Positions 5,498 through 43,154 of a stretch of DNA of 64,000 nt are shown here, piece after piece. The notes beneath the pieces are model-generated. The model ran no database searches. It was not told the DNA's origin and saw only the letters and a list, made by a program, of their open reading frames with translations. Position 1 is the first letter of the stretch, and the number at the start of each line of letters is the position of its first letter. The DNA comes from Candidatus Micrarchaeota archaeon (GTDB lineage Archaea; Micrarchaeota; Micrarchaeia; Anstonellales; J096): NCBI GenBank assembly GCA_026982895.1, contig JALWQW010000003.1:10063-74062 (forward strand), given 5' to 3'. Made by a program: the position numbers and the translations under genes.

Positions 5498-6430
5498 TTA
5501 AACTCTGTAAGCGTCTTCAAAGACTTGTGGCAGTCGTTGTGGTGTCACAAGCCCAGCTTCAGTTATATATGATGTTATGTATTTAGCAGGCGTCATATCA
5601 AAGGCAGGGTTTAACACAGAAACACCTTTTGGAGGCTTATTCCATACTTCTTCTGGCGGGCGCTGCTCAATCCTCTCTTGGAAGCCGAATATACTCTGAG
5701 CATCGTACTTAAAGAGCTCCGCTGCCGAGTAGAACGGCACATTATACTCTTTTGCTACAATGGCGAGCGTGCGCGTGCCGATTTTGTTTATAAGGCTTCC
5801 ATCTGCTTGTATCGCATCTGCGCCTACAATGACTATATCGACATCTTCCATAAAAGAAGAGCTTGCTCCATCGACGATTGTTTTAACATTTACACCAGCC
5901 TCTGCCAATTCATTAGCAGTGATATGTCCTTGATAAAGAGGCCTCGTTTCACAGCTAAAAACTTCCTTTACTTTGCCCTTTTCGTGAGCCCTTTTTATCA
6001 GTGCTGTGGCTGTCGATGAATGGCAATAAGTCATTATAATGGCGTTATTTGGTATGACATTGCTTCCCACCTCTGCTAGTGCATTGAAACTCTCCTCCAT
6101 TTTTTTAAGATGTTCATCTATACTACCATCTAAAGCTTTCTTTATCTTCTCTACAGACGGTTGTTGAGCTAAAGTCACAACTCTCTGAAGAAGTTTGGAT
6201 AAAAGCTCTCTTGTCATAGGTTCTGTTGGCCTAGAATTCATCAAGCGAAAGGCTGCCAGACTTATCATCGACAAAAGTTCGTCGGCAGAATTGCCATCAT
6301 ACTCTTTTACGACTTCTTGGATACTTTTGAGCGCTTCTTTTGCTACATTGCGGGCTCCTTGTATTTTTATATTCTTTATGTCGTGGATTGTCTTTTCCAC
6401 GATGGGCGGCAAAGGAGGTTCGGCTACCAT
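5498..6430 (-). CDS. eIF-2B alpha/beta/delta-family protein, probably ribose-1,5-bisphosphate isomerase
   Basis: 310 aa. 'GADAIQADGSLINKIGT...LAIVAKEYNVPFY' is typical of the e2b2 / MtnA-like isomerase family. Confidence 0.7.
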   Translation of the reverse strand: MVAEPPLPPIVEKTIHDIKNIKIQGARNVAKEALKSIQEVVKEYDGNSADELLSMISLAAFRLMNSRPTEPMTRELLSKLLQRVVTLAQQPSVEKIKKALDGSIDEHLKKMEESFNALAEVGSNVIPNNAIIMTYCHSSTATALIKRAHEKGKVKEVFSCETRPLYQGHITANELAEAGVNVKTIVDGASSSFMEDVDIVIVGADAIQADGSLINKIGTRTLAIVAKEYNVPFYSAAELFKYDAQSIFGFQERIEQRPPEEVWNKPPKGVSVLNPAFDMTPAKYITSYITEAGLVTPQRLPQVFEDAYRV

Positions 6431-6511
6431 ATAAGTGATAAGTGAAAGGGGGTTTATAAATCTTTTTAGTGCAGTTATAATTTATTAAAATTTTGGTATA
6501 AAAAACACTAC

Positions 6512-7063
6512 ATGCTCTTAAAAAAGAAGTCCCTTTTGAAGAAATATGAGGAAAAATATGGCAAAAATCTCGTTAGAAAAGCATTCAACAAGTATAAACA
6601 ACTAGACAATGAGCATTTCTTAACAACACTCGTAAGCACATCTATAACTTTAGCACCTTCTTTGGCTACAGCCATAGCTTTGGTAGAGAGGGATTCTCCT
6701 TCTAATTCAGATGTAATGGTTGGGGTTGCTTTTGCTATTTTGGGCAGTAAAATTGCTCTTGATATAAGCCAAGAGTTTGAAAACATCCTCTTTCCAAAGG
6801 AGAAAATAGGCAGGTGGGCGCTTCTTAATAGGCTATTTGGAAGGAAGAGTAACAGCAGATATTTCTTTGAACAGTTAGCCGGTTTCACAGGCATTTGGAG
6901 CGGCTTTTTATTCATATTAACGCAACCCATGCTTGGCAGTTTATTGGCGTTGACTTCTACCACTATGTTTTTGTATTCTATCAAGGCGCGCATCTATGAT
7001 AAGGGTTTAGCGGACTTGAATGAAGATAAAGCCTTTGAGATGTTGAAGGACAATCTTTTATAA
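6512..7063 (+). CDS. Hypothetical protein with a basic N-terminus, a hydrophobic core and an acidic C-terminus
   Basis: 183-aa ORF. It is preferred over the overlapping antisense ORF 6508..6993 because its composition is more protein-like. A TATA-like 'GGTATAAAAAAC' sits just upstream. Confidence 0.4.
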   Translation: MLLKKKSLLKKYEEKYGKNLVRKAFNKYKQLDNEHFLTTLVSTSITLAPSLATAIALVERDSPSNSDVMVGVAFAILGSKIALDISQEFENILFPKEKIGRWALLNRLFGRKSNSRYFFEQLAGFTGIWSGFLFILTQPMLGSLLALTSTTMFLYSIKARIYDKGLADLNEDKAFEMLKDNLL

Positions 7064-7115: not shown

Positions 7116-7655
7116 ATGAATCTCTTGAAAAAGGTGGAATCTAAAAAAGGCAAATCTTTTGTAAAGAAACTCCGTAAGCATTACACCACATTAGAAGAGC
7201 GCGCTTTGCTTGCCTACGCAGCCAAAGGAAGTATTGCAGGCGTAAGCACCTCCACATTGCTTAAACTCTTCATGGATAGAGATATTAATGGAGGAGAGGA
7301 TACTTTCTTAAATATATTAACTAACACAGTGATGGTAATAATATCTTTAGAACTTGCTCATACTGTTGGCGATGAGATGTTTGATGGACCTGAAAATAAG
7401 GTCACATGGCATGTTTTGGGGAAGGTCTTCGAGAAAGATTGGAAAGTGAAACTATGGAAGGCCATGGAGCGAATGGGTTTGTTTGGTTTTGTCATGAGCT
7501 CCTTCCTTCTTAATACAGATATTGTGCAGGCAGCCATTTTCTCTTCTGTCTCTTGGATGAGTTTCTTTTATGGAATGGAGCGACAAGGAGGGTATAATTT
7601 ACCAGATGATGATGTGCTAGAAATCATATCACAAACTGAGCTTGATGATGATTGA
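7116..7655 (+). CDS. Hypothetical protein, a possible distant paralog of the upstream gene
   Basis: The ATG at 7116 is preferred over the GTG at 7089. Like its neighbour, it has an 'MxLLKK' basic start, a central hydrophobic segment and an acidic tail (DDDVLEIISQTELDDD). Confidence 0.4.
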   Translation: MNLLKKVESKKGKSFVKKLRKHYTTLEERALLAYAAKGSIAGVSTSTLLKLFMDRDINGGEDTFLNILTNTVMVIISLELAHTVGDEMFDGPENKVTWHVLGKVFEKDWKVKLWKAMERMGLFGFVMSSFLLNTDIVQAAIFSSVSWMSFFYGMERQGGYNLPDDDVLEIISQTELDDD

Positions 7656-7662
7656 AGAAGCA

Positions 7663-7675
7663 AACTTTTAAATCC
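7663..7675 (+). promoter_or_regulatory. Putative TATA box for tRNA-Thr
   Basis: 'AACTTTTAAATCC' is centred about 28 nt upstream of the first tRNA base. Confidence 0.35.
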
Positions 7676-7696
7676 TTCTTCACTTATCTCTCTTCA

Positions 7697-7768
7697 GCCT
7701 CCGTAGCTCAGCGGCAGAGCGACCGCCTCGTAAGCGGTAGGTCGAGGGTTCAAATCCCTCCGGAGGCT
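7697..7768 (+). tRNA. tRNA-Thr (anticodon CGU)
   Basis: The sequence folds by hand into a cloverleaf. The acceptor stem is GCCTCCG/CGGAGGC. The D-arm is GCTC-AGCGGC-AGAGC. The anticodon stem ACCGC/GCGGT carries the loop CTCGTAA (U33, CGT, A37). The T-arm is GAGGG-TTCAAAT-CCCTC. There is no intron and no encoded CCA. Confidence 0.85.
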
Positions 7769-7810
7769 TCAATACCTATGTTTATAAACTTTTTCACACA
7801 CAAATTAATC

Positions 7811-8539
7811 ATGGTTGCAGCGCGCTCTACTACCTTGTCTAGAGATAGGGTGTTGGATATAAATCCAACCATGAGGGCCTTTTTGGCAAGGAATAAAAGC
7901 GTCGTCGAGAAGAAGCGCTCTTTTTTGTCCAAAAGCCTATTCCACCAGCGCCGCATTTCTAGTTCGAAAAAACAAGAGCCGAATTTGCTTGTAATAACCT
8001 CAACTGACAGCCGCGTTCCTGTCGAGGAGATATTCGCAGCGTATCCTGGCGAGATGTCTGTTATAAGGCAGTTTGGTTTTGTTTTAGGTAGGGAGGGTCT
8101 TGCCTCTGTTTATTATAATCTAACACGCCGACCAATAGATACTGTTCTTGTAATGGGCTTATCTAAATGTTCTGCTTTGGAGTTCATATCTAATTTGTTA
8201 TTGAGCGAACATCCTATCCCCCGTTATTTACATCCCATTGCTGGGGGTATCACATCTTCAATAACGGAGTCTCGCATAAATCATGCTTATAAAGACGACT
8301 CAGATGTGCTCTTAGAGGCTGCCATGAGAAATGCTATTCGAGTAGCGTCAAGCGTTTATGAAGTCCTTACTCACATTCGGCTCAATGAAGGTGCTTTTTT
8401 GAAGGATAGGGATGTAAAAATCTATAATGGAGTATATTTCCCAGAGAGTGGCTATGTTCGCCTTTTTACAAATAACTTGTCCTTCGTTGATGAAAAAGGC
8501 AAGGAAATAGAGATTACTCCTAAGGGCCATATCATCTGA
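7811..8539 (+). CDS. Beta-carbonic-anhydrase-like paralog lacking two zinc ligands (a pseudo-enzyme or an incipient pseudogene)
   Basis: It aligns with the intact downstream CA ('FLARNKSVVE', 'DSRVPVEEIFAAYPGE'). However, 'CSDSR' has become 'STDSR' and 'HTKCG' has become 'LSKCS'. The annotated ORF start at 7652 would overlap the tRNA, so the ATG at 7811 (or 7778) is used. Confidence 0.55.
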   Translation: MVAARSTTLSRDRVLDINPTMRAFLARNKSVVEKKRSFLSKSLFHQRRISSSKKQEPNLLVITSTDSRVPVEEIFAAYPGEMSVIRQFGFVLGREGLASVYYNLTRRPIDTVLVMGLSKCSALEFISNLLLSEHPIPRYLHPIAGGITSSITESRINHAYKDDSDVLLEAAMRNAIRVASSVYEVLTHIRLNEGAFLKDRDVKIYNGVYFPESGYVRLFTNNLSFVDEKGKEIEITPKGHII

Positions 8540-10590: not shown

Positions 10591-11460
10591 TTATTTGAGT
10601 TTAGGCCAATTATTCTTCACTATTGTTTTGAACTTTAAGTATGTGCTGTAAAATCCTTTTTTATCTATGATACTCACTTCAAATTCACCATTTTCCATTC
10701 TTTTTATATCCAATCCACACGAAAGTAGAAATCCCCTGGTCAATTTGTAAAATTTATCCCATTTTTTCGGGTCTTTCATTTCTGATTCTAAACTCTCTGC
10801 AGTCGCGTCCTCTAATGCAGATGTTATTTTATTAAAAGCCATCTTTCTAGCCCACATATGAACATTGTCAAATTGAAGAAGTCTAAATTGAGCCAAAATT
10901 AATAAACTGCTAACTAAACCTTTTACCCGTATCCACTCCTTTTCTACTAATCCTCCTTTTTTAGCCTTTAACTTATCGAAGCTCTTTATGTTTAACATAT
11001 CGCCTTTTTCTACATATCCTATGATGTAAGCTTCCTTTTCTAAAAATGACCAAATCTTTGGAATATCCTGTAGTGTTAATGGCCTCAATCTTCTGGAAAA
11101 TTCTCTTTCAGCAAACTCATTGTATGCCCTTATATATGACAGGTATGCATAAGGGCTCTCATCAAAGCTTGGCATATATTTTGGATTCTTTAGTTTATCA
11201 GCGGCCTTAATCAAATAATTAAGTTCTTCATACGCTTTTTTTATTTCTTCTCTCTTAGCAGGCTTTCCATCCATCATACCTCTAAGCGTATCTCTCCTAT
11301 TAATCACAGTCTCCAGAATGCTATTAATTGTATCCATATCTACTTTCTTAACAGCAAGTGGCTTCTCTTTTGGAGGTTTTGCTTTATTTCCTTTTTCCGC
11401 CAATATTAAACCTGTAGCGGCTATTGTTGCAATTGTGCCCGCAACCAATTTTTTGCCCAT
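10591..11460 (-). CDS. Hypothetical N-terminally anchored or secreted protein
   Basis: N-terminal hydrophobic segment 'LVAGTIATIAATGLILA' followed by a charged domain. 289 aa. Confidence 0.45.
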   Translation of the reverse strand: MGKKLVAGTIATIAATGLILAEKGNKAKPPKEKPLAVKKVDMDTINSILETVINRRDTLRGMMDGKPAKREEIKKAYEELNYLIKAADKLKNPKYMPSFDESPYAYLSYIRAYNEFAEREFSRRLRPLTLQDIPKIWSFLEKEAYIIGYVEKGDMLNIKSFDKLKAKKGGLVEKEWIRVKGLVSSLLILAQFRLLQFDNVHMWARKMAFNKITSALEDATAESLESEMKDPKKWDKFYKLTRGFLLSCGLDIKRMENGEFEVSIIDKKGFYSTYLKFKTIVKNNWPKLK

Positions 11461-11511: not shown

Positions 11512-12051
11512 TCAATTTGTCTTTATGCTGCACATACCTTCCTTGTAGTTATTATCGACATTTACATCCAGTAGCCTCTCATAACTTTGGCTAGCTGAGG
11601 AGTTGCCTTCATGCACATAAATTATGTAGCAGTCGTGCGTTTTCAAGTAATTTAAACACTTTCCTTTGTCCCATTCTATTTTTTCTCCTTTTGAACATGG
11701 CAGTGATTGGCAGTTGTCCATAAGGTTTCCTTCGCATTTATCGCCGTTGAATGCCAAGAAGTTTACAACCTTCTTGGGAAAACTTCTAAGGGCTGTCTGA
11801 TAATATTCTAAACTACAATCCATCACAGGCTTTGCTAATTCTGTATTGTTGGGATTTTCTAGGACAATGCATAGGGGTTTATTCAATATATTGCTGTTCA
11901 TATCTGCAATTCCTATGCTCTGTCCTCTTAACGCTTCTAAACTTGTATTGCTTTGAGGTGTAGAGTAATACAACAATATGCCAAGGGCTATCGCTAATAA
12001 AATAATTCCGAGTATCCATTTTGTGCTCTTATCTATTTCTTGATTAGGCAT
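11512..12051 (-). CDS. Cys-rich membrane-anchored extracytoplasmic protein
   Basis: N-terminal TM segment 'WILGIILLAIALGILLYY'. It has 10 Cys in about 140 aa and several N-x-S/T sequons. Its start overlaps the stop of the upstream 688-aa gene. Confidence 0.45.
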   Translation of the reverse strand: MPNQEIDKSTKWILGIILLAIALGILLYYSTPQSNTSLEALRGQSIGIADMNSNILNKPLCIVLENPNNTELAKPVMDCSLEYYQTALRSFPKKVVNFLAFNGDKCEGNLMDNCQSLPCSKGEKIEWDKGKCLNYLKTHDCYIIYVHEGNSSASQSYERLLDVNVDNNYKEGMCSIKTN

Positions 12052-14110
12052 ATTTAAACACCTCCGCTATATAACATTCATCATAAGCATATTTTGGAAG
12101 TTCAACTCTTAGGATGTTCTCACCTAAATAAGAACCGCTTATTTCACTTTTATCTGCGAAGTTTGCCATTATAACAGGCTCGCCGTTGAATCTATCACAG
12201 GCTGCCGCAGCTTGGCTTTTTCCATTAACCTTACATGTATCATCATAGCTTTCTATAAGTGTAACATTCTTCCCGTCTTTCTTGAGCTCATCTTTAACCT
12301 TCTCCAAACAACTGACGATGCTGCTGTCACTCTTAGCTATCAATAGGACAGAATTGCTATTCTTTATTGCCTTTGAGAAATCTTGTATTGTTGCACCGTA
12401 CAATCCTTTATCAAAGGCGAAGAATGACGCGCCTGTAAAGAATATGAACACTGTAAACGCTCCTATCAATATAATCATGAAGAAGAAAATGCGCTTGCTC
12501 TTTTTTATCCTCTTGGCCTTTTTCTCCTTTCTGTAAAACATGGGCACGCTTATCCATACCACGACGGCTGCCATCGATGTTCCAACTATTAGGGAGTAGA
12601 TGATTGGCGTGCTCTCTAAGAATTGTTCCCTTAAGCTTAGTGATTTAGGTAGATACGGTTTTGTTATTGTATATAGGCTGTTGAAATATGTCTGAAGGCT
12701 GCCTAAAAATGTATTTACAAGGGAGCGCTTTTCTCCGCTGGCGGCGTTGAATAACTCTGTTGTTATATTTTCGTAACGGTTGTAAAATAGCACTAATCTG
12801 GTGGCATCTATTTTTCCAGATGTTTCCTTCGATAGGCTTTCGTGTTCAGCTTTGATTCTTTCCCTTTCTAAGGGATCAGATATTTTGTTGTACAATGAGA
12901 GGTACATTATCTCAAAGTGCCTCTTAGATTCGTCAAGTTTGTCAAGCAGCGTTTCATAATTCTTTGTTGCATTAGAAATAGCGTATATTGTGTTCTCCAG
13001 AGTTTTTATCTTCACCTCTATATATGTAAAGTTGTTGTTTTCTATCTTATCCTTTATTTCATCTTCAAGGGGCTCTATAGAATAAACCTTTTTTCTTAAT
13101 TTATTATCATTTATTTCATCCAAAACTTTTATTGCGCGACTCTTTAGGCTGTTCCATCCTTTCAGCGTGCTGTTAAGTTCGCTGGTGTATTGCGTTCTTA
13201 ACTCATAATTGTGCCTAGATTCTATGCGCGTCTCAGTTGAGTTGTAAAGCTCGTCGAGCACATCCCTAAATTCGTAGAGAGGTTCTGTCGCCTTTGCCCA
13301 TTTGTCTGCTGTGTTTTTTAAGTTATTCAAGGCGGTTTCATTAACGATAAGTTCGGCGCACACACCGTAACAATCAGGGCAGTCTGCTAGATTTGTTGGG
13401 AATCTAAATTTGTTACTGTCTATGGCATCAACATCATCTTTTATTTTGTCAACAGCGTCGCTTATATCTTCAAATTTTAGGCTCATAATGGCCAAATCTT
13501 CCCCATCTTTCAAATAATTAATGGACTCTTCGATAGTGCTTAATTGCGTATCTATATCATAACTGTGTGTGAAAAAGCTTTCAACATCAGGAAGTATATC
13601 CGTGTAATCAGTACATCCTATGTCTGGGCCGAAATTGGAACAGATATAGCGTGAATAAAACTCGTATATGCTCGAATACATAGAGGGGTTGCTTGGCTCG
13701 CCTAGGTTCTCGCCAAGGGATTTTCTACACGCTTCTTCTTCTGTTCCTGGAAATTGATCCCCATTGTTTCTACTCTCATTAAAAGCAGCAGCCCACGCCT
13801 CCATCTCGTTGGCTATTTCATTAATATCGCTGGGCGCGTATTTTTTTAGGTAATATTGCCATAATATATCTTTCATTTCGGATTTACTCTCTACAATCTC
13901 ACTGTTATTTCCTTTAACCAACAGGGCGGGCTCTCCTTTGACATAGACTAAACTGTAATTTGTTGAGACATTTGTGAGGTTGAGCGGCACAATATTTACT
14001 ACTGCATTTTCTTCTCCTGGAAGAAGATAATAACTAGCATTATCCAAAACTTCAGCGAATGTCAAGCTGGCTACCAATATCAAAAATAAACCTAGGCTCC
14101 AATACTTCAT
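12044..14110 (-). CDS. Large glycoprotein-like surface protein with C-terminal membrane anchors
   Basis: Signal-like N-terminus 'YWSLGLFLILVASLTFA'. It has many N-x-S/T sequons and two hydrophobic helices near the C-terminus ('IIYSLIVGTSMAAVVVWISVPMF', 'FFFMIILIGAFTVFIFF'). Confidence 0.5.
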   Translation of the reverse strand: MKYWSLGLFLILVASLTFAEVLDNASYYLLPGEENAVVNIVPLNLTNVSTNYSLVYVKGEPALLVKGNNSEIVESKSEMKDILWQYYLKKYAPSDINEIANEMEAWAAAFNESRNNGDQFPGTEEEACRKSLGENLGEPSNPSMYSSIYEFYSRYICSNFGPDIGCTDYTDILPDVESFFTHSYDIDTQLSTIEESINYLKDGEDLAIMSLKFEDISDAVDKIKDDVDAIDSNKFRFPTNLADCPDCYGVCAELIVNETALNNLKNTADKWAKATEPLYEFRDVLDELYNSTETRIESRHNYELRTQYTSELNSTLKGWNSLKSRAIKVLDEINDNKLRKKVYSIEPLEDEIKDKIENNNFTYIEVKIKTLENTIYAISNATKNYETLLDKLDESKRHFEIMYLSLYNKISDPLERERIKAEHESLSKETSGKIDATRLVLFYNRYENITTELFNAASGEKRSLVNTFLGSLQTYFNSLYTITKPYLPKSLSLREQFLESTPIIYSLIVGTSMAAVVVWISVPMFYRKEKKAKRIKKSKRIFFFMIILIGAFTVFIFFTGASFFAFDKGLYGATIQDFSKAIKNSNSVLLIAKSDSSIVSCLEKVKDELKKDGKNVTLIESYDDTCKVNGKSQAAAACDRFNGEPVIMANFADKSEISGSYLGENILRVELPKYAYDECYIAEVFKYA

Positions 14111-14171: not shown

Positions 14172-15134
14172 TCATGCTTCTCTATTTATAAACATGTGGA
14201 CTACTTCTAGTATGCTCTCAGCAGCGTCGTTTTGTGGCAGTTCCTCTTTAAGTGCAGGCAAGTATTTCTCTATCAGCGTGCTAGCTTCTTTTTTGGCAAA
14301 GTCAATAGCTCCGCTTTCTTTTATTAGCTCTATTGCTTCTCTTATTTCTTCTTCTTTTTCTGTGTGCTTTTTAAGTATGGCTTTCAATGCCTTTGCTTTT
14401 TCTTCTGGCAGGTTCTTCAAAGCGTATAAAACCATGAGGGTTCTTTTTCCCTCTGTGATATCATCACCAATCTTCTTCTTGTATTTTTCAAAGTCGCCTG
14501 TTATATTGAGAAGGTCATCTTGAATCTGAAATGCTACTCCTAACATCGTCATGGCATTGTATATCTTAGCGTACTTCTCTTTGTCTACATTATAAAATGG
14601 TAGGGCAGTTGATAATGCTAAGAGAACCCCTGTCTTATTTTTGGTTATTTCATAATACTCTTCATAAGCCAAATCAAAGCGTTCTTCGTGGATAGCTGAA
14701 AGCTCTAAATGTTGTCCTTTAACGACGCCCATAAATGTTCTTTCTATTTCGTTTAGTTCGCCTTTACTTAGGCTGGAATTTATAAGCTGCCTCCATACAA
14801 CTGTATACATAGCATCTCCTAGGTTTATAGCCACGGGCTCTCCGTAAAGAATGTGTAAAGTAGGTTTTCCTCTTCTATATAATGACGCATCCTCTATATC
14901 ATCGTGGACTAATGTGAAGTTGTGAAAAACCTCTATAGCCAACGCTACATCCTCGAATTCTTTTCTATCTCTTCCAGCAGATTCACTTGCCAATAGCAAT
15001 AAGACGGGCCTAACCCTCTTTCCTCCTCTATTCACATACTCTCTTATTGGGTCTATCATCTCTTCTGGCAGATCTTTTATAGCCTCTTCGACATGTTCAT
15101 CAACCCATTCCTTTAATGAAGATATCTTGCTCAT
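14172..15134 (-). CDS. idsA: Geranylgeranyl diphosphate synthase (trans-polyprenyl synthetase family)
   Basis: First aspartate-rich motif 'LVHDDIED'. Second motif 'FQIQDDLLNITGD'. The 'GKPT' and 'GKRT' motifs are also present. Confidence 0.8.
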   Translation of the reverse strand: MSKISSLKEWVDEHVEEAIKDLPEEMIDPIREYVNRGGKRVRPVLLLLASESAGRDRKEFEDVALAIEVFHNFTLVHDDIEDASLYRRGKPTLHILYGEPVAINLGDAMYTVVWRQLINSSLSKGELNEIERTFMGVVKGQHLELSAIHEERFDLAYEEYYEITKNKTGVLLALSTALPFYNVDKEKYAKIYNAMTMLGVAFQIQDDLLNITGDFEKYKKKIGDDITEGKRTLMVLYALKNLPEEKAKALKAILKKHTEKEEEIREAIELIKESGAIDFAKKEASTLIEKYLPALKEELPQNDAAESILEVVHMFINREA

Positions 15135-15181
15135 GCCAAAGATTAGTCTTAAATCTTTAAAAAGCCTTCATATTGGACGCT

Positions 15182-18100
15182 TCATATTGGCAGGACATTG
15201 AAGTGGCTACTGTGTAATATGGCCTCAACATCTAATTCTTTTTCTATGTCGTCGTGCGAATATTCGTAATTTCCTGTATTCACCGCGTCGTCGAATCCGT
15301 ATCTGCCTATAAGTGTCATTTCAACGCAATCTTTATCACTCTTGTCTTCGTTCAAATAAACGCACACAAAGGCATGGTCGCTTTCCAATATTATTTTTGG
15401 GTAAATACCTGCAGACATTAGTGCAGTTGCATATACCAAGCTTCCATCGATGCAATTAGCTCCGTTTGCTTCTAAACTTTGGCTTGGAGTATAAACCCTT
15501 TGTACTCCTTCCATGCCACTTTCAGTTGTGCTTACATAATGCATTCCTTCATCATTCAGTTCGTCGTATATAGCTTTCATCTGTAATCGTGTGCTCTCTT
15601 CTTCTGTACAACTGCTCCTTCCGTCGTCGCCACATCCACTGGAATATGTACCATAGCCTATAAACGCTCTACTGGGCAGCCTATTAGCCGCTGCTGAAAC
15701 TAAATTATGGACTTCCTGCGATCCTGTTGTTACCCACGCCACTATCGCGTTATAGTATCGCGAATCCCATTTCATTGAATTGGCAGGCATAAGTTCAGCA
15801 TCGGCTGTCGCCGCCGCCACAACATTTCCACTATTGTCGAGTATCTTCACGACATATTGGATATCTCTTTTCTCCAAGTTGTTCAGGGCGGCATTATTTA
15901 GGTCGAGGCTTATCTCTTCTGTCCATTTACCGTTAGGTGTTAGAGAGATATCATCAGTATATGTGTAACTGTAATCAGGGATGCTAATCTCCATTCTGCC
16001 ATCAAATCCTTCGCTGCCGGAATTTTCGGCACTTGCTATAACCATCGTTTTTCCGAAATAGTCTGAATTTATAGCGAATGCAGGTATTATTGGATCGCCA
16101 AAGCTTGTGCTGATAATAGTTGCTGTAATTTCGCTTGAGCCCTGAACTACAATGCTTTTACTCGTTTCTAAGTTTCCTGCACTGGCTTCGATTATGTCCA
16201 CGCCTGAGAATGAGCTTGAAGATGTATAGACAACTGAACATTTTCCATCCCCGCCCGTATCGCATGATGAATCTATATCTCCATGATTAGCTGAGAAATA
16301 AACTCTTTTACCTGCAACACCGTTTCCTATTTCATCTTTGATAGTTGCTTCAACAGCGCAAGAATCCCCGCTATTAATTGTACTTGGATTAAGCGTTAGA
16401 TAGATCTCTTTTGGTTCTGGCGGCTTTAATTTAATATCAACACTATCTTTAGCATCGCCAGCCTCACCAACTATTTCCACAGTTTCACTATATTTGCTTT
16501 CTCCTGCTATATATTCAACATAACATCTTCCGTCTTCTGTTGTGCAATGGTCTGTATCCAATTCACCTGGACCTACATAAACTCTAAAATTAACCACTGT
16601 TCCATCATCGACAGGCGATCCACTTATAGTATCTACATCTGCATATATCCTCATCCTGCTACGACCATCTGCTGGTAGTTCATTTGTGTAGCTATCGGTG
16701 TATAATCTTATTTTTCCAGCCGACCGGGATATTTTGAGAGTTATATCTCTATTTAAATTATCTGAGAGTTGATTTATATTCGCACCAGAAACCCCTTTAT
16801 AGTTCTGAAATGCTTTGTTAACATCATCACTACTCACATATATGGAAATGTCTAAATTATCAGGATAATAATTCCACCAAGAATCATCATCTTTATAATA
16901 TACTTCTGATTTGCACAAACCATTATCACCAGTGTGACACACACTTAATGTTAAATCTCCACGTGTGCTCTCAAAATCGACCTCTGTGTTTGGCACGGGC
17001 TTTCCATTGATATCGACGACTTCCACTGTAATAGTCGTTGCTTCTGCGCCACCCTCTACTACATAATCCTTGTCTGTGCTTATTATCAAATTGTAAGGAT
17101 ATGTTCTTTTCATTTTCAATGTTGCTTTACCTTTAACATCCTCAACTTCTCCGTCAATTTCTATTGTGTAATCTTTATTTCCGTTGTATGCAGGCCTAAA
17201 TGTAACGCTGCATGCCCCATTTTTAGTCGTGCATGTGGTTGAATTGAATGAGCCTTCTCCATTTGCATGGAACCTGACAACCACACCGTTGTGCACTTTA
17301 TGCCCATGACTCTCAACATGGGCATTAATTGTTATAGACTTATTAGCTGTAGCTAACATGCTGGATGGGCTTAAATCAAGGCGTATATCTGTGACTTCTT
17401 CGCTTATGCTTATATCTATGCTTTTGCTTTTATTCCCTATTGTAATATCTATCTTATCAGATCCAAAGTGGTTATTTTCAGGGATATAATAAACTTTACA
17501 CTCATATTTTTCTTCAGTAAGACATAATGTTGCATTGCCATCATTTTCTAGCTTTCCTTCAACAGCTTCGAATTTACCATGTGTCGCTTTTAATCTTACT
17601 TTCTGATAATTAATTGCCACGTTGTCCTCATTTAATGGTATTATTGTTATCGTCGTATTCTTGTCAACATACTTTGTTAGATTACTTTTCCCCACCTTTA
17701 TTTTAAAATCATTGGCAGTTAACGGCCTAACATAAAAACTTACACTTTTATTTACTTCATCCACCTCCCATTCCTCTCTATTGGGGTTTATTACTGTTAT
17801 ACTTACACTCGTGTTTCCTGATTTTTTACCCACTTTATATTTAAGAGTGCATTCTGGCGGTTTAAATGTACAACTTTTTGGACTAATTTCCCCACTACCT
17901 TCTTTTATTTTAGCCCTTATCCAATAACCTGCAGGAAGATTTTCGTCTCTCCTATTTTTTAATTTAATATGCATCTCTAGCTCATCTTTTCCATTTGCAT
18001 ATAATGTTTTATTTTCCACATCAACCAGTACTTTATCCAAATTAGGGTACAATAAAGATATTTTTTTGTGGATGGTTTTTTTACCCATGCTTGTTTGAAT

Positions 18101-18481
18101 AGTTATATTTATCTCGTCGCCTTTGTTCAAGTCATTCTTAGGAGGTATATACTCTACATAACACTTCCCCTTGCTTTTACAATAAGCCTTTTTCAGTATA
18201 CCTCTTTTGGCGCTTGCGCTTATCTTTATTCCTTCTACTCCCCCACCAAAGGCGTTTCTAACATGTATCTCCATCTTTTTAAGATTGCCATCTGCAATAG
18301 TTATCAAGTCATTGCTCTTATATAATTTTAAGAGACTTCTATTTAGATTATTCATACCTTCAGGGCCATATGTTTTTACCTCTTTAATGCTTTGCGACAG
18401 CGCACTAAACACAAAAACCGCAGCCGCTACACTGACAATTCCTAACCCGAAAATAATGTAGAGTAATTTTTCGCCCTCCAC
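15182..18481 (-). CDS. Giant membrane-anchored surface protein: an array of Ig-like domains plus a C-terminal transglutaminase-like (Cys-His-Asp) domain
   Basis: N-terminal signal anchor 'LLYIIFGLGIVSVAAAVFVFSAL'. Modules of about 90 aa recur, each ending in a 'C-T-x-x-G-x-C-x-V-x-Y' di-cysteine motif (TTCTTKNGACSVTF, DHCTTEDGRCYVEY, SSCDTGGDGKCSVVY, SVCHTGDNGLCKSEVYY). The C-terminal 'NCIDGSLVYATALMSAGIYPKIILESDHAFVCVY...DKDCVEMT' resembles a transglutaminase-like core. Confidence 0.6.
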   Translation of the reverse strand: MEGEKLLYIIFGLGIVSVAAAVFVFSALSQSIKEVKTYGPEGMNNLNRSLLKLYKSNDLITIADGNLKKMEIHVRNAFGGGVEGIKISASAKRGILKKAYCKSKGKCYVEYIPPKNDLNKGDEINITIQTSMGKKTIHKKISLLYPNLDKVLVDVENKTLYANGKDELEMHIKLKNRRDENLPAGYWIRAKIKEGSGEISPKSCTFKPPECTLKYKVGKKSGNTSVSITVINPNREEWEVDEVNKSVSFYVRPLTANDFKIKVGKSNLTKYVDKNTTITIIPLNEDNVAINYQKVRLKATHGKFEAVEGKLENDGNATLCLTEEKYECKVYYIPENNHFGSDKIDITIGNKSKSIDISISEEVTDIRLDLSPSSMLATANKSITINAHVESHGHKVHNGVVVRFHANGEGSFNSTTCTTKNGACSVTFRPAYNGNKDYTIEIDGEVEDVKGKATLKMKRTYPYNLIISTDKDYVVEGGAEATTITVEVVDINGKPVPNTEVDFESTRGDLTLSVCHTGDNGLCKSEVYYKDDDSWWNYYPDNLDISIYVSSDDVNKAFQNYKGVSGANINQLSDNLNRDITLKISRSAGKIRLYTDSYTNELPADGRSRMRIYADVDTISGSPVDDGTVVNFRVYVGPGELDTDHCTTEDGRCYVEYIAGESKYSETVEIVGEAGDAKDSVDIKLKPPEPKEIYLTLNPSTINSGDSCAVEATIKDEIGNGVAGKRVYFSANHGDIDSSCDTGGDGKCSVVYTSSSSFSGVDIIEASAGNLETSKSIVVQGSSEITATIISTSFGDPIIPAFAINSDYFGKTMVIASAENSGSEGFDGRMEISIPDYSYTYTDDISLTPNGKWTEEISLDLNNAALNNLEKRDIQYVVKILDNSGNVVAAATADAELMPANSMKWDSRYYNAIVAWVTTGSQEVHNLVSAAANRLPSRAFIGYGTYSSGCGDDGRSSCTEEESTRLQMKAIYDELNDEGMHYVSTTESGMEGVQRVYTPSQSLEANGANCIDGSLVYATALMSAGIYPKIILESDHAFVCVYLNEDKSDKDCVEMTLIGRYGFDDAVNTGNYEYSHDDIEKELDVEAILHSSHFNVLPI

Positions 18482-18516
18482 CTATTATTATGAAGCATAA
18501 CTTTTAAATGTTATTC

Positions 18517-19587
18517 TTACAACCTCAAAAACTCCTCGTAGAGCTCGCGCAACTTTCCTTTTAACAAAACAAGGTCTCGAGCATCTGCTTTGAATTTTTT
18601 TACATCGTTGAATCCCGTTAAGAACATCACACCCTTTAATTGTTCAATCCACTTGTCGATAAGCTCTGCCACACTTTTTTCTCCACCACTTTTTGTGTAT
18701 GCTTCCAAGAAGGGCTTTGCTGCTCCAAACATCTCGGCGCCTAAGGCAAGAGCCTTTGCACCTTCTATGCCAGAGCGAATGCCGCCGCTAGCTATATAAT
18801 GACCATCAGGATAATCATGCTTTGCCATTAAGAGGGCGAGGGCCGTTGGAATACCCCATTCTTCAAAGCCTTCTATGCTGCCGCCCCTCATATACTCTAT
18901 TCTGCTCCAGCTTGTTCCTCCTGCTCCTGCTATGTCAAAATATGTGCTTATCTTCTCCAATTTTAAGATTGTTTTAGGGGATAATCCACTTCCAACTTCC
19001 TTAAAGATGATTGGTACAGGAATTCTATCGGCGTGTTTTTCTATTGCTGCTAAGACACCCTCCCAGTTTTTATCTCCTTCTGGCTGGATTAGCTCTTGAA
19101 GGGGGTTGAGATGGATGGCTAAAGCGTCTAATTCCGTTTTACTTATCATCTCCTCTATTTTCTCAGGAGGATACTCCTTCAATTGATAGGCTCCTATATT
19201 GCCTATTAAAAAGACATCGGGCACCTCTTTTTTGACGGCGTATGTCTCCGATAGCTCGGGTTTTTCTATCATGGCCCTTTGAGAGCCCAAACCCAAACCA
19301 ATTCCCTTATCGGCTGCTGCTGAGGCTAAGCCAATATTAATCTCTTTAGCAGCTTTATAACCGCCGGTCATCGCCTCTATTATCAGTGGCGCCTTAAACT
19401 CATAGCCCATAAACATAGTTTTCGTGCTTATGCTCTCGAAATCTACTTCTGGCAGTGCATTGTGGATGAGAAAAACATCTTCAAATAATGTGCTCTTATC
19501 ATAGTTCGCTTCGTCCTTCAACGCTCTTGCAATATGTTCAGCCTTTCTTTTCTCAGTGGCGTTTTCGCCATCAGTTTTATTGGCCAT
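18517..19587 (-). CDS. fni: Isopentenyl-diphosphate delta-isomerase, type 2 (FMN-dependent)
   Basis: 'EKRKAEHI' and 'IEAMTGG' motifs are present. Size and TIM-barrel character are typical of IDI-2. Confidence 0.8.
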   Translation of the reverse strand: MANKTDGENATEKRKAEHIARALKDEANYDKSTLFEDVFLIHNALPEVDFESISTKTMFMGYEFKAPLIIEAMTGGYKAAKEINIGLASAAADKGIGLGLGSQRAMIEKPELSETYAVKKEVPDVFLIGNIGAYQLKEYPPEKIEEMISKTELDALAIHLNPLQELIQPEGDKNWEGVLAAIEKHADRIPVPIIFKEVGSGLSPKTILKLEKISTYFDIAGAGGTSWSRIEYMRGGSIEGFEEWGIPTALALLMAKHDYPDGHYIASGGIRSGIEGAKALALGAEMFGAAKPFLEAYTKSGGEKSVAELIDKWIEQLKGVMFLTGFNDVKKFKADARDLVLLKGKLRELYEEFLRL

Positions 19588-19609
19588 GCTCTTTTTTTAG
19601 GAGAAACCT

Positions 19610-20308
19610 TTAAAATAGGGACTTGAATCTCATAGCGTCGTCGTACATATACACATTGTTGAAGAGGATATAATCGCCGTTTTTAGTGACTCGTTTCACT
19701 TCCCTAAGCTCGTCGTCGCTGAATTTATAATCGTACATCATTCTCTCACCAAAGCCATGAAGACGATAATAATTGAAGGGTTGTTTTCTGAATGGCTTTT
19801 GCCTTAATGGGTCTATGACATGGATAATGTCAAGCTCTTCAAACAGTGGCTCAATGATTTCTCTAGTCCATTCTTCCTTCCATCTAACCTCCCAACCGAT
19901 TGTTAAGTCTCCCCTATCAATCATTGAAAAGAATCTCTTGGCATTATTTATGTGCTCGGCAGTGGGCATAAAATGTTTATGTGGTGTTTGGAATATAACG
20001 ACTTTGCTCTCCAATGCCTTAACAATCTCTAGAAATTCCTTCCAAACTGCCTTGCTCCCTTCTCTAAATTTATATTCATGCGTTATTGTTTTCGGCGCCT
20101 TTACTGTGAATTCAAACCTGTCATTAATCCCTCTCGCCTTTTTCAGCCACTTCTCAGCAGTACTCACACGAGGCAGACGGTAAAAGGTGCTATTTACTTC
20201 GACAACATCAAAGTGCTTAGCATAGAGCTCAAGCTTATCGCCTTTATCAGGAAATCTCGACCAGCCACATGTTCCTGTTTTCACATTTTTGGGCATAATC
20301 CTTCTCAT
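19610..20308 (-). CDS. DUF72 (YecE-like) family protein
   Basis: The 'GTCGW' and 'EVNSTFY' motifs are hallmarks of DUF72. Confidence 0.7.
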   Translation of the reverse strand: MRRIMPKNVKTGTCGWSRFPDKGDKLELYAKHFDVVEVNSTFYRLPRVSTAEKWLKKARGINDRFEFTVKAPKTITHEYKFREGSKAVWKEFLEIVKALESKVVIFQTPHKHFMPTAEHINNAKRFFSMIDRGDLTIGWEVRWKEEWTREIIEPLFEELDIIHVIDPLRQKPFRKQPFNYYRLHGFGERMMYDYKFSDDELREVKRVTKNGDYILFNNVYMYDDAMRFKSLF

Positions 20309-20344
20309 CCTCCGACTTTTAAATACTTTTGCTCATAATTTAGC

Positions 20345-21031
20345 ATGAAATTGAGTAAGAAGGATGCCGAATATCTTGTATCGGCGTTTGACATCTATTT
20401 TGGTGGTGACCTAACAGAAGTGAGCAACGAGAAAAAGGAAGAAATATATCGCCTTCTGTTAGACAATGCACCCTCTTTCCCACTTTCATTGGCGAAAGAA
20501 GTATTGGAATCCCACCCAAGTGAGAGCGAAGTTCTATGGTTGGAAAGGACTGCTAAAGGCGAGGAGAACGCGGAGTTCATGAAGCGCGTCTTCCAATTAA
20601 CTCTTCGCATGAGGAAAGAATTGAAGGATAGGGAGGTATGGCGTATCGCCTCTGATATTGCGTCCAATTCTGTGCCAGTAGATCCAGAGGACTTTCTTTA
20701 TCTCTTTGCTGCTATTCCTAAATTTATAGCTAAACCAAGAACTATACCCTCTCTTGCACGACTTTTGGCTAATCCCAAAGCAATAATATCTATTCGTAAT
20801 GAGGGGGCTCTTGCTGCTTTAGGAAATATTTTAGAGGCTGCCGAAGATAATGATTATGAGCAGGTTAAACTCATTTCAAAAGCTTTACTTAAAGCACCGT
20901 CTCTTGTGAAACTTTATAAATGGCGTGATGAGCTTGAGATTAAGAAGTTTGAAAAGATGGGCTGGAAGGTTGAAATTGATCGGACAGGTAGAGGGGGAAG
21001 CTGGAAGTTCACTCTTAAGGATAAGGAGTAA
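20345..21031 (+). CDS. Hypothetical protein
   Basis: 228-aa ORF with no recognisable motifs. It sits immediately upstream of the 637-aa ORF. Confidence 0.45.
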   Translation: MKLSKKDAEYLVSAFDIYFGGDLTEVSNEKKEEIYRLLLDNAPSFPLSLAKEVLESHPSESEVLWLERTAKGEENAEFMKRVFQLTLRMRKELKDREVWRIASDIASNSVPVDPEDFLYLFAAIPKFIAKPRTIPSLARLLANPKAIISIRNEGALAALGNILEAAEDNDYEQVKLISKALLKAPSLVKLYKWRDELEIKKFEKMGWKVEIDRTGRGGSWKFTLKDKE

Positions 21032-33464: not shown

Positions 33465-34763
33465 TTAGAAAGGATTAGTAAATGGAGATCCTCCACTGTT
33501 CCTCTGGTCATTTATAACGCTGCGCGCTGTTAGCTCTACTAGCTGTCTTTTCATTCTCTCTAAACGCGCTTCGTCCGCTGGGAAGACGCCTATTTTGCTC
33601 AGAATCACATCTATCTCCTCTTTCATATCTGACCTTTCTTCTCGGAGGAATGTAAGTGCAGTGCCAACGTCGTAGTTCACTTTGACCCTTTTCACTTTGT
33701 CTACCATCTCCTCTTTGTTGGTAATTAAGCCACCCATATCCTCGAGTATCTTTTCTATTTCCTCTTCTGAGACTACATCCTCAACGTACATACTTATTTG
33801 ACTGTCAAGCTCACCTATAGCTTTTCTACCACCATCTAAATAGAAGGTGAGGTGGTTTCCATTTAGTTCAATAGATTTGAGATTAAGTGCTATTATTTTG
33901 TATATAGACAAGTCTTCCTCTTCTTTGCCTCTTTCCTCCTCACTTTCTTCAGCAGTTCTTTCTTCATCCTTCAAGTTAACTTTTTGGAATCTATATCTCT
34001 CAGCGATTTCATTCAGGAGTTTGACAGCTTCATTTCTTTCGGGATTACTGCTTAACTCCACTAATTTCTCCACAGCATCAGCAACCACCTCTTCGTCGTT
34101 TATTAATTCATTTTTTAGTTTCTCATCTATTTCGTTGCTTATCGTGGAGGCAATCAATAAATCCTCTTTATCTTTTATGAAATCTGCGAAACTCACCTTC
34201 AATATGTTGGCTAGTTCGATGAGGTTAGATAGGGCATTCTCTGAATCTCCTATGTCGCTTACAGTTACTTTGTTACTTCTTAGTATTTCCTCCACTGTTT
34301 CTTTATTCTCTATGAGTAGTTCATTGTCTAACTTAACTAACAGCTTAAGCACATCTGCTGTTTCCCAGCTGGATAACGGGCTTATATAGGTTGTGCCTCT
34401 GTTAGCAAGGTTTGTCTTTAACCACCGAATTATCTTTTTGCTGCTTTTGGCGAGCTCCTCTTTACTATAAGTGTTGAGTAAGCGTATAATCTTCATTTTA
34501 GTTTCGCTCCCATAAACATACATCCCTTTTTCTAGGAGTTGCCTTATATGAGGTTTAAGGCCTCTAGTTGCTAGTTCTTCCAGTATTTCATTGTGGATGG
34601 ATAGACTATCTATTTTTCCAAACTCTCCTAATAACTCCTCATCGCTCATTAGTCTGTAGCTTTTTATGTCCTTCCAAGGGTCGAAATCTCTACCATTGCG
34701 CAACTTGTATCCTCTCCACTTCTTTTCCTTAAAAGAATCCTTCCTCTTCTTTTTGAATGCCAT
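33465..34763 (-). CDS. Acidic hypothetical protein in the same strand block as the AAA/vWA pair
   Basis: 432 aa, highly charged and helical, with no recognisable motifs. Confidence 0.45.
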   Translation of the reverse strand: MAFKKKRKDSFKEKKWRGYKLRNGRDFDPWKDIKSYRLMSDEELLGEFGKIDSLSIHNEILEELATRGLKPHIRQLLEKGMYVYGSETKMKIIRLLNTYSKEELAKSSKKIIRWLKTNLANRGTTYISPLSSWETADVLKLLVKLDNELLIENKETVEEILRSNKVTVSDIGDSENALSNLIELANILKVSFADFIKDKEDLLIASTISNEIDEKLKNELINDEEVVADAVEKLVELSSNPERNEAVKLLNEIAERYRFQKVNLKDEERTAEESEEERGKEEEDLSIYKIIALNLKSIELNGNHLTFYLDGGRKAIGELDSQISMYVEDVVSEEEIEKILEDMGGLITNKEEMVDKVKRVKVNYDVGTALTFLREERSDMKEEIDVILSKIGVFPADEARLERMKRQLVELTARSVINDQRNSGGSPFTNPF

Positions 34764-41582: not shown

Positions 41583-43154
41583 ATGCCAACAAAACTTAAT
41601 TCATATCCTATGAAAATTCAGGAAAGCAATAACATGGAGCTTGCTAGGAGAAATATACTTCATCATCCACCAGAACCTCCGCCGGAGTTTTTAATGGAAA
41701 GTGCGTCGGAAGGTATCTATATAGGTAGAACAGATGTTTTAAATACGCCTTTCTTCTGGACGCCGAAATATGTTACGAATCCACATATAGCCATCGTCGG
41801 TATATCTGGTAGTGGTAAGTCCTATTTTATTAAGACTCTCCTAATCAGGGCTAGTTTTGTTTGGGATGCTAATGCCGTTATCATAGACTGGGCTGGCGAA
41901 TATAAGGATTGGGTATTGGAGACAGGAGGTAAGGTTGTTTCTTTGGGTAAGGGCAATTACCTAAACCTTCTCGATTTGGGTGGCATGCGCCCCTATGATA
42001 GAATTAAGCAGGTTATGTCGACATTGGAAGTGCTTAGCGACATTGGCCAGTATCCCGAACAGAAGCGTTTAACTGAGCAGGCCATTGAAGAGGCTTATGT
42101 TAGGGCTAAATTTAAGCTGGATTCTCGCGACCAAAGGGACGAGCTTGGCAATCCACTTGAACCGCCGACGCTCAAAGATGTCGTTAAGATATTGGAAGAG
42201 CAGAGGCAGATGGGAACCTATGAATATCCATCCGAGCTCAACAATGCTATTTACCGTCTACAAAAAATGACTCGCGAGGGTGAGGATTATTTCGCCCAAA
42301 GGAGCACGATTAGTTTAGATGACATCATCCACTCAGGTCTTGTAGACATGGATTTAACAGGTTTACCCGACGAGGAGACAAGAGCTCTCGGCGCTTTGAC
42401 TCTCCTCCAATTCATCAAGGAAAAGATGCGTCTGGAAGGGGCACAGGATGTTAAGGGCGTTAAACTCATAACAGTGCTAGACGAGGCGTGGAAGATAGCA
42501 GGAGCTGAGAATAGCGATGTCGTTATGATTGTGAGAGAAGGTCGTAAGTATAATTTCTCATTAATTGTAGCGAGCCAGAACCCGACAGATATAAGCCAGA
42601 GTATATTCAGCAATGTTGGAACGACTTTCATGCTTAAGACGAAGTTTGAATCCTATCTTGACTATTTACAGGGCTCTCTTAGGTTTACCGATTATTTAAG
42701 GAGCAAGATTATGCAGTTCGGTGTTGGACAGACAGCTGTGAATATGGCCTTCTATGTTCCTCTTCAATTCTCTCAAACATTTGTGATTAAGCACATTGAA
42801 GGTGAAGAACCTGTTAAAGATTACTTCATTACCTTTAAAGGTGTGGAGGGGGTGCCAATGGCATTTTCTATATCTATCAAGAAGAACGATTTCCGCGCCC
42901 GTCTGAGGCGTTTTGGGCTTAGTGATGAGCATGTTGAAGCCATAACCTCTAAATTCGAGAAGAATTCCCGTCGTTTAAATGTCGTTGATTTGGCTTTGGG
43001 TTTAGAGAGGTATGGTGTGGAACGAAGAACAATCGTCGATTTTCTCAAGGAGATGGGCGTCGACGATGCCACAATCATCAATATCTTTACAAAGGTCGAT
43101 TTCAAGAAGAGTGGCTCCTCTGGAAAGCCCACGAGGCTGTTCTTGAAGAAGTGA
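41583..43154 (+). CDS. VirB4/HerA/FtsK-superfamily P-loop ATPase (AAA_10/DUF87-like)
   Basis: Walker A 'IAIVGISGSGKS', Walker B 'LITVLDEAWK', and 'EGRKYNFSLIVASQNPTD', which is typical of the VirB4/TraG/HerA clade. Confidence 0.65.
   Translation: MPTKLNSYPMKIQESNNMELARRNILHHPPEPPPEFLMESASEGIYIGRTDVLNTPFFWTPKYVTNPHIAIVGISGSGKSYFIKTLLIRASFVWDANAVIIDWAGEYKDWVLETGGKVVSLGKGNYLNLLDLGGMRPYDRIKQVMSTLEVLSDIGQYPEQKRLTEQAIEEAYVRAKFKLDSRDQRDELGNPLEPPTLKDVVKILEEQRQMGTYEYPSELNNAIYRLQKMTREGEDYFAQRSTISLDDIIHSGLVDMDLTGLPDEETRALGALTLLQFIKEKMRLEGAQDVKGVKLITVLDEAWKIAGAENSDVVMIVREGRKYNFSLIVASQNPTDISQSIFSNVGTTFMLKTKFESYLDYLQGSLRFTDYLRSKIMQFGVGQTAVNMAFYVPLQFSQTFVIKHIEGEEPVKDYFITFKGVEGVPMAFSISIKKNDFRARLRRFGLSDEHVEAITSKFEKNSRRLNVVDLALGLERYGVERRTIVDFLKEMGVDDATIINIFTKVDFKKSGSSGKPTRLFLKK

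Follow-up and report, generated by a model that had tools for sequence, protein, structure and literature searches.

A putative stalked surface protein with a transglutaminase-like head encoded between idi and idsA in a Micrarchaeota archaeon

Intimin and invasin adhesins carry a functional C-terminal head on an extended stalk of tandem Big_1 modules, and they are held by an outer-membrane beta-barrel. The head of intimin is a C-type-lectin-like domain. Proteins of the transglutaminase-like superfamily place a cysteine at the N-terminus of a helix, after a small-residue motif (G/S-A-N-C) and with the hydrophobic helix following it, and then a histidine and an acidic or hydrogen-bonding residue on the next two strands. 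Solved examples are CPR-C4, the vasohibins, and the transglutaminase-like domain of the PDB chain 9y6s_8G. CPR-C4, which belongs to the transglutaminase-like/vasohibin superfamily, has been confirmed by experiment as a cysteine protease and has the triad C61, H93, and L115, and in the vasohibin/CPR-C4 group a backbone carbonyl occupies the third triad position (PMC9108980). A further system is the anti-phage protein ProA, a helicase-nuclease of about 1900 amino acids (aa) that is carried on plasmids and is related to Hhe. Here we describe gene X, located in a stretch of 64,000 nucleotides (nt), hereafter the window, from contig JALWQW010000003.1 of a Candidatus Micrarchaeota archaeon. The product of gene X combines a stalk of the intimin type with a head that we place in the transglutaminase-like superfamily and that shares one domain with ProA. 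Based on sequence comparison and structure prediction, we propose, with a probability of roughly 0.65, that X is an extracellular, membrane-anchored, stalked thiol enzyme of a DPANN-type archaeon and that its position between the isoprenoid genes idi and idsA is incidental.

Gene X covers positions 15182-18481 of the minus strand, the strand on which all of its features below lie. It comprises 3300 nt, begins with a GTG start codon, ends with a TGA stop codon at 15182-15184, and encodes 1099 aa. The window lies within a 96-kb metagenome scaffold (ENA ERZ23491061 scaffold_160), on which X was predicted with an identical length of 1099 aa and the flanking genes were called too. A preliminary description of the locus, made from the sequence alone, had announced a giant protein; the protein is there, at a size that is large rather than giant. 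X was found to consist of one N-terminal membrane helix, seven Big_1 modules, a beta-sandwich, and a C-terminal alpha/beta domain. The membrane anchor claimed in that description was borne out by a single hydrophobic stretch at aa about 6-28 (18398-18466), which is the sole 19-residue window with a mean Kyte-Doolittle hydropathy above 1.6 and which may serve as a transmembrane anchor or signal segment.

The stalk spans aa 55-781 (16139-18319). Pfam Big_1 (PF02369) matched X in three stretches with 113.6 bits against a cut-off of 34.9 (E 4.8e-33), Invasin_D3 matched the stalk as well, and the best PDB sequence match of the stalk was intimin (6tpl, E 3e-4; also 1f00). An iterated profile built from X and its closest homologues resolved seven modules with E-values of 1e-12 to 1e-20. 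The module cores lie at aa 61-115, 159-219, 273-336, 374-432, 477-530, 601-661, and 703-756, corresponding to positions 18137-18301, 17825-18007, 17474-17665, 17186-17362, 16892-17053, 16499-16681, and 16214-16375. The proposed long array of immunoglobulin (Ig)-like modules is thus confirmed, with a module period of about 98-123 aa, nearer to 100 than to the 90 aa given earlier. Homology to the two intimin structures suggests that the modules adopt an Ig-like beta-sandwich fold. Pairwise identity among the modules was 19-50% over short local alignments, and the modules are to all appearances old duplicates. An Ig domain is roughly 4 nm long, which would give a seven-module stalk of about 25-30 nm.

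Each module contains a pair of cysteines in the arrangement C-x5-7-C (residues 101/107, 204/211, 320/328, 417/424, 515/523, 646/653, and 740/748). In the alignment both cysteines were invariant in 7 of 7 modules, and the profile consensus around them reads sCTTdknGeCsVtYt. The conserved di-cysteine motif had been written as C-T-x-x-G-x-C-x-V-x-Y; the cysteine pair holds throughout, whereas this literal pattern fits only some of the modules. Two further cysteine pairs were found in the head domain. Cys1040 and Cys1052 (15326-15364) are register partners in a predicted hairpin that carries the conserved histidine and glutamate described below, and they probably form a cross-strand disulfide. Across the copies of the family, both positions are Cys in 24, one is Cys in 4, and neither is Cys in 126, so the two covary. 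The second pair, 950/958, lies in a loop of the head and is likewise present as two cysteines or none across the family. The paired patterns in the modules, at 1040/1052, and at 950/958 point to disulfides and therefore to an extracytoplasmic location, and we infer that X faces outward and is disulfide-bonded. The resemblance to intimin and invasin lies in the tandem Big_1 modules that form an extended stalk below a functional C-terminal head. X differs from both in that it would be held by an N-terminal helix in the archaeal membrane rather than by an outer-membrane beta-barrel. It differs from intimin in having a cysteine pair across the hairpin in every module, while the aligned intimin sequences have none, and in bearing a head of thiol-enzyme type instead of a C-type-lectin-like domain.

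The nearest relatives of X (E 1e-80 to 1e-170) are proteins of 544-710 aa with two or three Ig modules each, and those with a taxon name belong to Micrarchaeota/Micrarchaeia and Candidatus Ainarchaeum. These shorter DPANN orthologues (P0001, P0004-P0011, and P0151) share with X the anchor, the Big_1 modules with cysteine pairs, the beta-sandwich, and a Cys-His-Glu domain, all in the same order, and their heads are 37-44% identical to that of X. Four of them (P0007, P0009, P0010, and P0151) have a cytoplasmic, Cys-rich segment of zinc-ribbon type at the N-terminus, unlike X, which has no zinc ribbon. A further difference is the length of the stalk. With seven modules, X has over twice as many as any relative found, which suggests selection for reach.

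The C-terminal alpha/beta domain, hereafter the head, covers aa 901-1099 (15185-15781) and is backed by the predicted structure, the family profile, and sub-threshold superfamily matches. The preliminary description had read its residues as a C...H...D triad, of which the cysteine and the histidine stand and the aspartate does not. The predicted nucleophile is Cys1010 (codon 15452-15454, checked), which lies within NCIDGSLVYATAL, and the predicted general base is His1036 (15374-15376), which lies within DHAFVCVY. Of 155 copies of the domain in the family, 150 have Cys at the first position, and 151 of 154 have His at the second; the histidine is also invariant in both alignments of the family, A2 (the full sandwich-plus-head module, 43 sequences) and A3 (the catalytic part). 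The Asp residues in the 1045-1050 loop of X are not conserved in the family. The predicted third residue is instead Glu1054 (15320-15322), within CVEMT, at a position held by Glu in 147 of 154 copies and by Asp in the other 7, so that the two together account for 154/154. The Cys, His, and Glu (or Asp) positions are each retained in at least 96% of about 155 copies. Asn1009, which precedes the cysteine and is present in X, is kept in 153 of 155. In X the spacing is 26 residues from Cys to His and 18 from His to Glu.

The family to which the head belongs was found to be large. When 1.84 billion cluster representatives (clusters at 50% identity) were searched exhaustively with HMMER, 3117 proteins or clusters matched at E <= 1e-3, of which 1210 passed the stricter limit of E <= 1e-10. 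A word-index homologue search recovered few, namely 2 proteins with the C-terminal 318 aa of X and 5 with the 43-sequence profile. The consensus derived from A2 and A3 reads QRVrlPxESL...SANCIDGxVLFASAxE..G..P.I.L.PGHAFVG......LETTM.G..F..A. and the motifs QRVxxPxESL, SANCIDG, PGHAFVG, and LETTM are the family's own. No Pfam model covers the family, and the last 318 aa of X on their own had no Pfam match. Cluster look-ups of family members gave only the name "hypothetical protein", and the sole named match of the head was NCBIfam antiphage_ProA, which aligned over positions 58-244 of that 1903-position model. More distantly related members measure 280-790 aa and occur in bacteria, for instance Fibrobacterales, Myxococcales, and Eremiobacterota. 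The domain is preceded by a hydrophobic N-terminus in 102 of 146 family representatives, and a lipobox-like motif was seen in 44, in agreement with an extracytoplasmic location. Some members, P0013 (aa 42-355 and 379-693) and P0024 (aa 35-347 and 372-685), contain two sandwich-plus-head modules in tandem. In both, the first copy lacks the Cys and the His (GNWLEKS / PEGRVV) while the second is intact, an arrangement that looks like a pseudoenzyme-enzyme pair. Loss of the cysteine and histidine in a degenerate copy beside an intact one is the pattern expected if these residues are functional.

We modelled the C-terminal 318 aa of X with AlphaFold2. A three-sequence alignment gave a predicted local distance difference test score (pLDDT) of 56 in the head, and this model was discarded. 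With the 43-sequence alignment, the pLDDT rose to 93 and the predicted template modelling score (pTM) was 0.89. The model contains a beta-sandwich at aa about 811-900 (15782-16051; strands at positions 33-116 of the fragment, pLDDT 90-98), which aligns across the 43 family members. According to DSSP, the sandwich is followed by a helical segment, a helix at 1010-1023, strands at 1028-1033 and 1036-1042, a seven-residue loop, and a strand at 1050-1053. In this prediction Cys1010 is the first residue of its helix, His1036 is the first residue of its strand, and Glu1054 comes directly after the antiparallel partner strand. The order and placement of the three residues in the model are as expected for a papain/transglutaminase core. 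Of the anticipated Cys-His-Asp triad, the model thus has the cysteine on a helix and the histidine on a strand, with Glu as the acid. In a Foldseek search with the whole model the beta-sandwich dominated, and the best matches were accessory beta-sandwiches of GH2 enzymes and similar proteins. The search also listed 9y6s_8G (E 1.6e-3 over 112 columns) and TG2/1g0d (E about 4e-3), within a range of 1e-3 to 6e-3 for these matches. Nothing interpretable was returned by Foldseek from BFVD.

Sequence profiles pointed to the same superfamily. Transglut_core (PF01841) matched 7 of the 43 family members (best E 3e-5), and DUF553 (PF04473), which Pfam describes as a "transglutaminase-like domain", matched 3 of 43. 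The family consensus reached E 6e-4 and 20.4 bits on Transglut_core against a cut-off of 23. On Transglut_core2 (PF13369), members reached E 6e-5, and the best of them scored 23.0 bits against a cut-off of 23.5. A PDB profile search with A3 placed 9y6s_8G (E 0.013) and 9e5c_1m (E 0.057) at the top, both named "Transglutaminase-like domain-containing protein", and the alignment to these chains spans the motif P..sL...(S/G)-x-NC...l.AS.l...G. CPR-C4 was next, at E about 1. The same search with the full module A2 gave only noise, such as IMPDH. From these weak and concordant links we conclude that the head probably represents a separate family with a Cys-His-Glu triad, as yet without a model, inside the superfamily of transglutaminase-like thiol enzymes. 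The family shares with the superfamily the cysteine at a helix N-terminus after the small-residue motif, and the histidine and acidic residue on the next two strands. It differs in that about 95% of members have Glu rather than Asp as the third residue, and in that a beta-sandwich is fused ahead of the domain in most members. Glu is chemically equivalent to Asp as a third triad residue. The transglutaminase-like head proposed in the preliminary description thus survives at the level of the superfamily, through the conserved cysteine and histidine and the predicted topology, and the specific assignment to Transglut_core does not, the match lying below the Pfam cut-off.

The same description had offered the pseudomurein endoisopeptidases as an example of what the head might be. 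Such a lytic enzyme of the PeiW/PeiP type (peptidase C71) would share the broad fold class and the Cys-His-acid logic with X. Scanning X (E up to 0.1), the 43 members (up to 0.01), and the consensus (up to 1) against Pfam returned no Pei family for the head and only the weak Transglut_core, Transglut_core2, and DUF553 matches. Most of the closest representatives of the family have N-termini with a bacterial-type signal or a lipobox-like motif, and named members include bacteria as well as DPANN archaea. To our knowledge, pseudomurein is confined to Methanobacteriales and Methanopyrales. We consider it extremely unlikely that X is an enzyme of this type.

Several observations weigh against a transglutaminase-like thiol enzyme. 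No transglutaminase-like model reached its curated threshold, and X alone had no Pfam match in the head, including to Transglut_core. The Foldseek matches to transglutaminases were marginal, with TM-scores of about 0.2 and with the aligned sub-domain left unshown in the output. The acidic triad residue of X is Glu and not the canonical Asp. X also departs from the family consensus at near-invariant positions outside the triad, with Met1022 in place of Glu, Met1055 in place of Thr, and Thr1019 in place of Ser. Finally, we found no paper on ProA, the sole named relative, and the literature likewise yielded no relevant transglutaminase-like defence domain.

The substitutions at near-invariant positions bear on the possibility that X is purely an adhesin whose head is a binding module that keeps the fold without the chemistry. 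A Big_1 array like that of intimin and invasin would suit such a role, and catalytically dead copies do exist in the family. Moreover, the best transglutaminase-like PDB chains, 9y6s_8G and 9e5c_1m, are both parts of large structural assemblies, in the case of 9y6s an axonemal doublet-microtubule repeat. However, the dead copies have lost exactly the residues that X retains. Unlike them, X keeps Cys1010, His1036, Glu1054, and Asn1009, each at least 96% conserved in the family. We therefore regard a purely adhesive X as unlikely.

The named match to ProA was examined at the level of domains. Residues 855-1050 of X matched the NCBIfam model antiphage_ProA (NF058533) with E 2e-21 and 75.3 bits, far below its 1500-bit cut-off, and Pfam detected no helicase, nuclease, DUF4011, or DUF3320 in X. 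When plasmids were searched by tblastn with the consensus of the family, the head domain turned up in 81 records, in genes annotated as "DUF3320 domain-containing protein" or "DNA helicase". Among them is a bona fide ProA of 1963 aa on the Raoultella IncFIB plasmid NZ_CP111116.1 (6632-12523 of the extracted locus, L022), which scored 2222 bits on the ProA model. Pfam recognised DUF4011, AAA_11/AAA_12, MTES_1575, and DUF3320 in this protein and nothing in its first 370 or so residues. It is there, at aa about 82-323, that the head family profile matched (E 6e-30), with all three residues retained, Cys in ATCLD, His in EGHAF, and Glu in VFETT. The N-terminal domain of ProA (aa about 80-325) is thus homologous to aa about 865-1099 of X. 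The remainder of ProA, with an SF1 helicase (AAA_11/AAA_12), an MTES_1575 nuclease, DUF4011, and DUF3320, has no counterpart in X, and ProA has neither a signal nor Ig modules. On this comparison, X and ProA share one domain, not family membership.

By analogy with ProA, the head of X might act against viruses, for example by cleaving or cross-linking virion proteins at the cell surface. The partial match to the ProA model and the intact triad in a bona fide ProA would be in keeping with this. The similarity is limited to that single domain, and the two proteins appear to work in different places: ProA, with its helicase and nuclease and no detected signal segment, seems to be cytoplasmic, and X seems to be outside the cell. 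We recognised no defence genes beside X, and a PADLOC match of the Ig region to PtuB (6.5e-4) was weak and spurious. An antiviral role for X is accordingly hard to credit, and we consider it very unlikely.

If X is the extracellular stalked thiol enzyme that we propose, its N-terminus would lie in the cytoplasm and the remainder of the inserted protein outside. The seven disulfide-stapled Big_1 modules would act as a stalk that holds the beta-sandwich and the thiol-enzyme head off the membrane. His1036, oriented by Glu1054 on the neighbouring strand, would deprotonate Cys1010. The target of the Cys1010 thiolate could be an amide or isopeptide bond in a protein outside the cell, either one of the cell's own surface proteins or one of a host cell. 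The acyl-enzyme (thioester) might be resolved by water, as in a peptidase, isopeptidase, or amidase, or by an amine, as in transglutaminase-type cross-linking. The analysis itself shows the domain composition, the family, the residue conservation, and the predicted topology, from which the catalytic activity, the substrate, and the function of the stalk are inferred.

A more specific version holds that X is a host-contact enzyme of a DPANN episymbiont. The long stalk would reach across the cell's own surface layer to that of the host, and the head would cut or covalently cross-link host envelope proteins for attachment or for a cytoplasmic bridge; the head belongs to a large family that would be used as secreted lipoproteins in bacteria and as the N-terminal module of ProA on plasmids. 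We hold this version to be improbable as stated. The molecules by which DPANN archaea attach to their hosts are largely unknown, and a stalked thiol enzyme is a testable candidate. The head family lacks both a Pfam model and a characterised member, so that working out its chemistry in a single setting would provide an annotation for thousands of proteins and might account for the regulation or triggering of ProA. The lasting value of X lies in this unmodelled family of at least 3117 clusters and in its occurrence in ProA, rather than in the position of the gene.

The preliminary description had emphasised that position, with X embedded in a lipid-biosynthesis locus as an enzyme of envelope remodelling or adhesion. 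The gene arrangement itself was reported correctly. Three minus-strand open reading frames (ORFs) lie within 14172-19587, in the transcription order idi, X, idsA, and their coordinates agree exactly with those given before, the two isoprenoid genes being split by the 3.3-kb gene. The gene idi (18517-19587) encodes a type-2 isopentenyl-diphosphate isomerase of 356 aa that passed the curated cut-off of TIGR02151 (373.5 bits against 281.3, E 8e-112). The gene idsA (14172-15134) encodes a short-chain (E)-prenyl diphosphate synthase of 320 aa, similar to geranylgeranyl diphosphate (GGPP) synthase, that is a clear member of Pfam polyprenyl_synt (219.9 bits against 27, E 4e-65). Its product scored below the equivalog cut-offs of the best two NCBIfam models (NF041003 and NF040698), with 198 bits against 468 for IdsA_Meth and 181 against 500 for GGPP_syn. 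By these sequence matches it is a trans-prenyl diphosphate synthase whose chain length the equivalog models do not fix.

The shared strand and the short gaps around X (35 and 47 nt) would fit a single co-expressed unit, in which X might, for example, process or attach envelope components made on polyprenyl carriers. The upstream regions of the genes argue otherwise. In the window, 21 of 48 genes (~44%) have a TATA-like hexamer at -25 to -32 of the start codon (for example those starting at 1977, 3509, 10591, 20345, 24581, 39922, and 46984), whereas genes directly behind another gene carry a GGAGGTG Shine-Dalgarno sequence instead (for example at 4105, 11512, 33465, 43694, and 49718). A TATA-like element at this distance without a Shine-Dalgarno sequence appears to be the signature of leaderless archaeal transcripts in this genome. 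All three genes show it, and none has GGAGGTG. The element of X is TTTAAA at -27 (18503-18508), that of idi lies at -28/-27 (about 19609-19615), and that of idsA at -28 (15156-15162), all on the minus strand and each a putative promoter.

Comparison with other loci gave a similar picture. Neither idi nor idsA was found within about 8 kb of X homologues in five loci (L001, L003-L006), where the neighbours are toxin-antitoxin, zinc-ribbon, SHOCT, and hypothetical genes. Conversely, no X-like gene was found near relatives of idi (39-52% identity) in 12 metagenomic loci, 2 of which have an idsA-like gene nearby. The separate TATA-like boxes together with the unconserved synteny indicate that the position of X between idi and idsA is incidental. 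Most likely, the three genes are separate leaderless transcription units, and their adjacency reflects chance packing in a compact genome. A functional coupling of X to the two lipid genes is correspondingly very doubtful, and the isoprenoid-locus angle does not hold up.

Some additional observations concern the neighbourhoods of X homologues. In two contigs of Micrarchaeota type, a SHOCT-domain protein is encoded near the X homologue, one gene away in L003 (6006-7319) and adjacent to it in L005 (9018-9572). In L005, two small zinc-ribbon proteins (5633-6825) precede the homologue, and an NYN gene is also among the neighbours. In the Fibrobacterales locus L007, the neighbours are MCP, GT2-TPR, and TraB/GumN genes. 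These neighbours gave no functional clue.

Immediately downstream of idsA, the window contains three minus-strand genes whose products have N-terminal hydrophobic segments and no convincing family match, at 12044-14110, 11512-12051, and 10591-11460. The first encodes a 688-aa protein with a weak PADLOC match to LeoBC (8e-4) that we judged spurious, the second a Cys-rich protein of 179 aa, and the third a protein of 289 aa. No homologues of these three genes were found beside relatives of X. On the other side of the locus, at 19610-20345, a DUF72 gene and a divergent 228-aa gene are separated by 36 nt, and this shared intergenic region has a TATA-like element that could serve in either direction. 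The start of the DUF72 gene differs between calls, giving 232 aa in the ORF list and 228 aa in the source-scaffold call.

The gene content marks the window as archaeal, with aRF1 and GatB encoded in addition to the type-2 isomerase, and it includes many large ORFs without a Pfam match. At E <= 1e-5, the latter include 59912-63901 (minus strand, 1329 aa), 44400-46940 (plus strand, 846 aa), 51086-52537 (plus strand, 483 aa), and 33465-34763 (minus strand, 432 aa). For a 974-aa ORF at 34768-37692, the sole match is CobT/VWA-like and confined to the C-terminus, and an ATPase of HerA/DUF87 type is encoded at 41583-43154. The only tRNA gene of the window (tRNA-Thr, CGT, 7696-7770, plus strand) is overlapped by a 295-aa ORF with a TTG start (7652-8539, plus strand), the N-terminal part of which is probably not coding.

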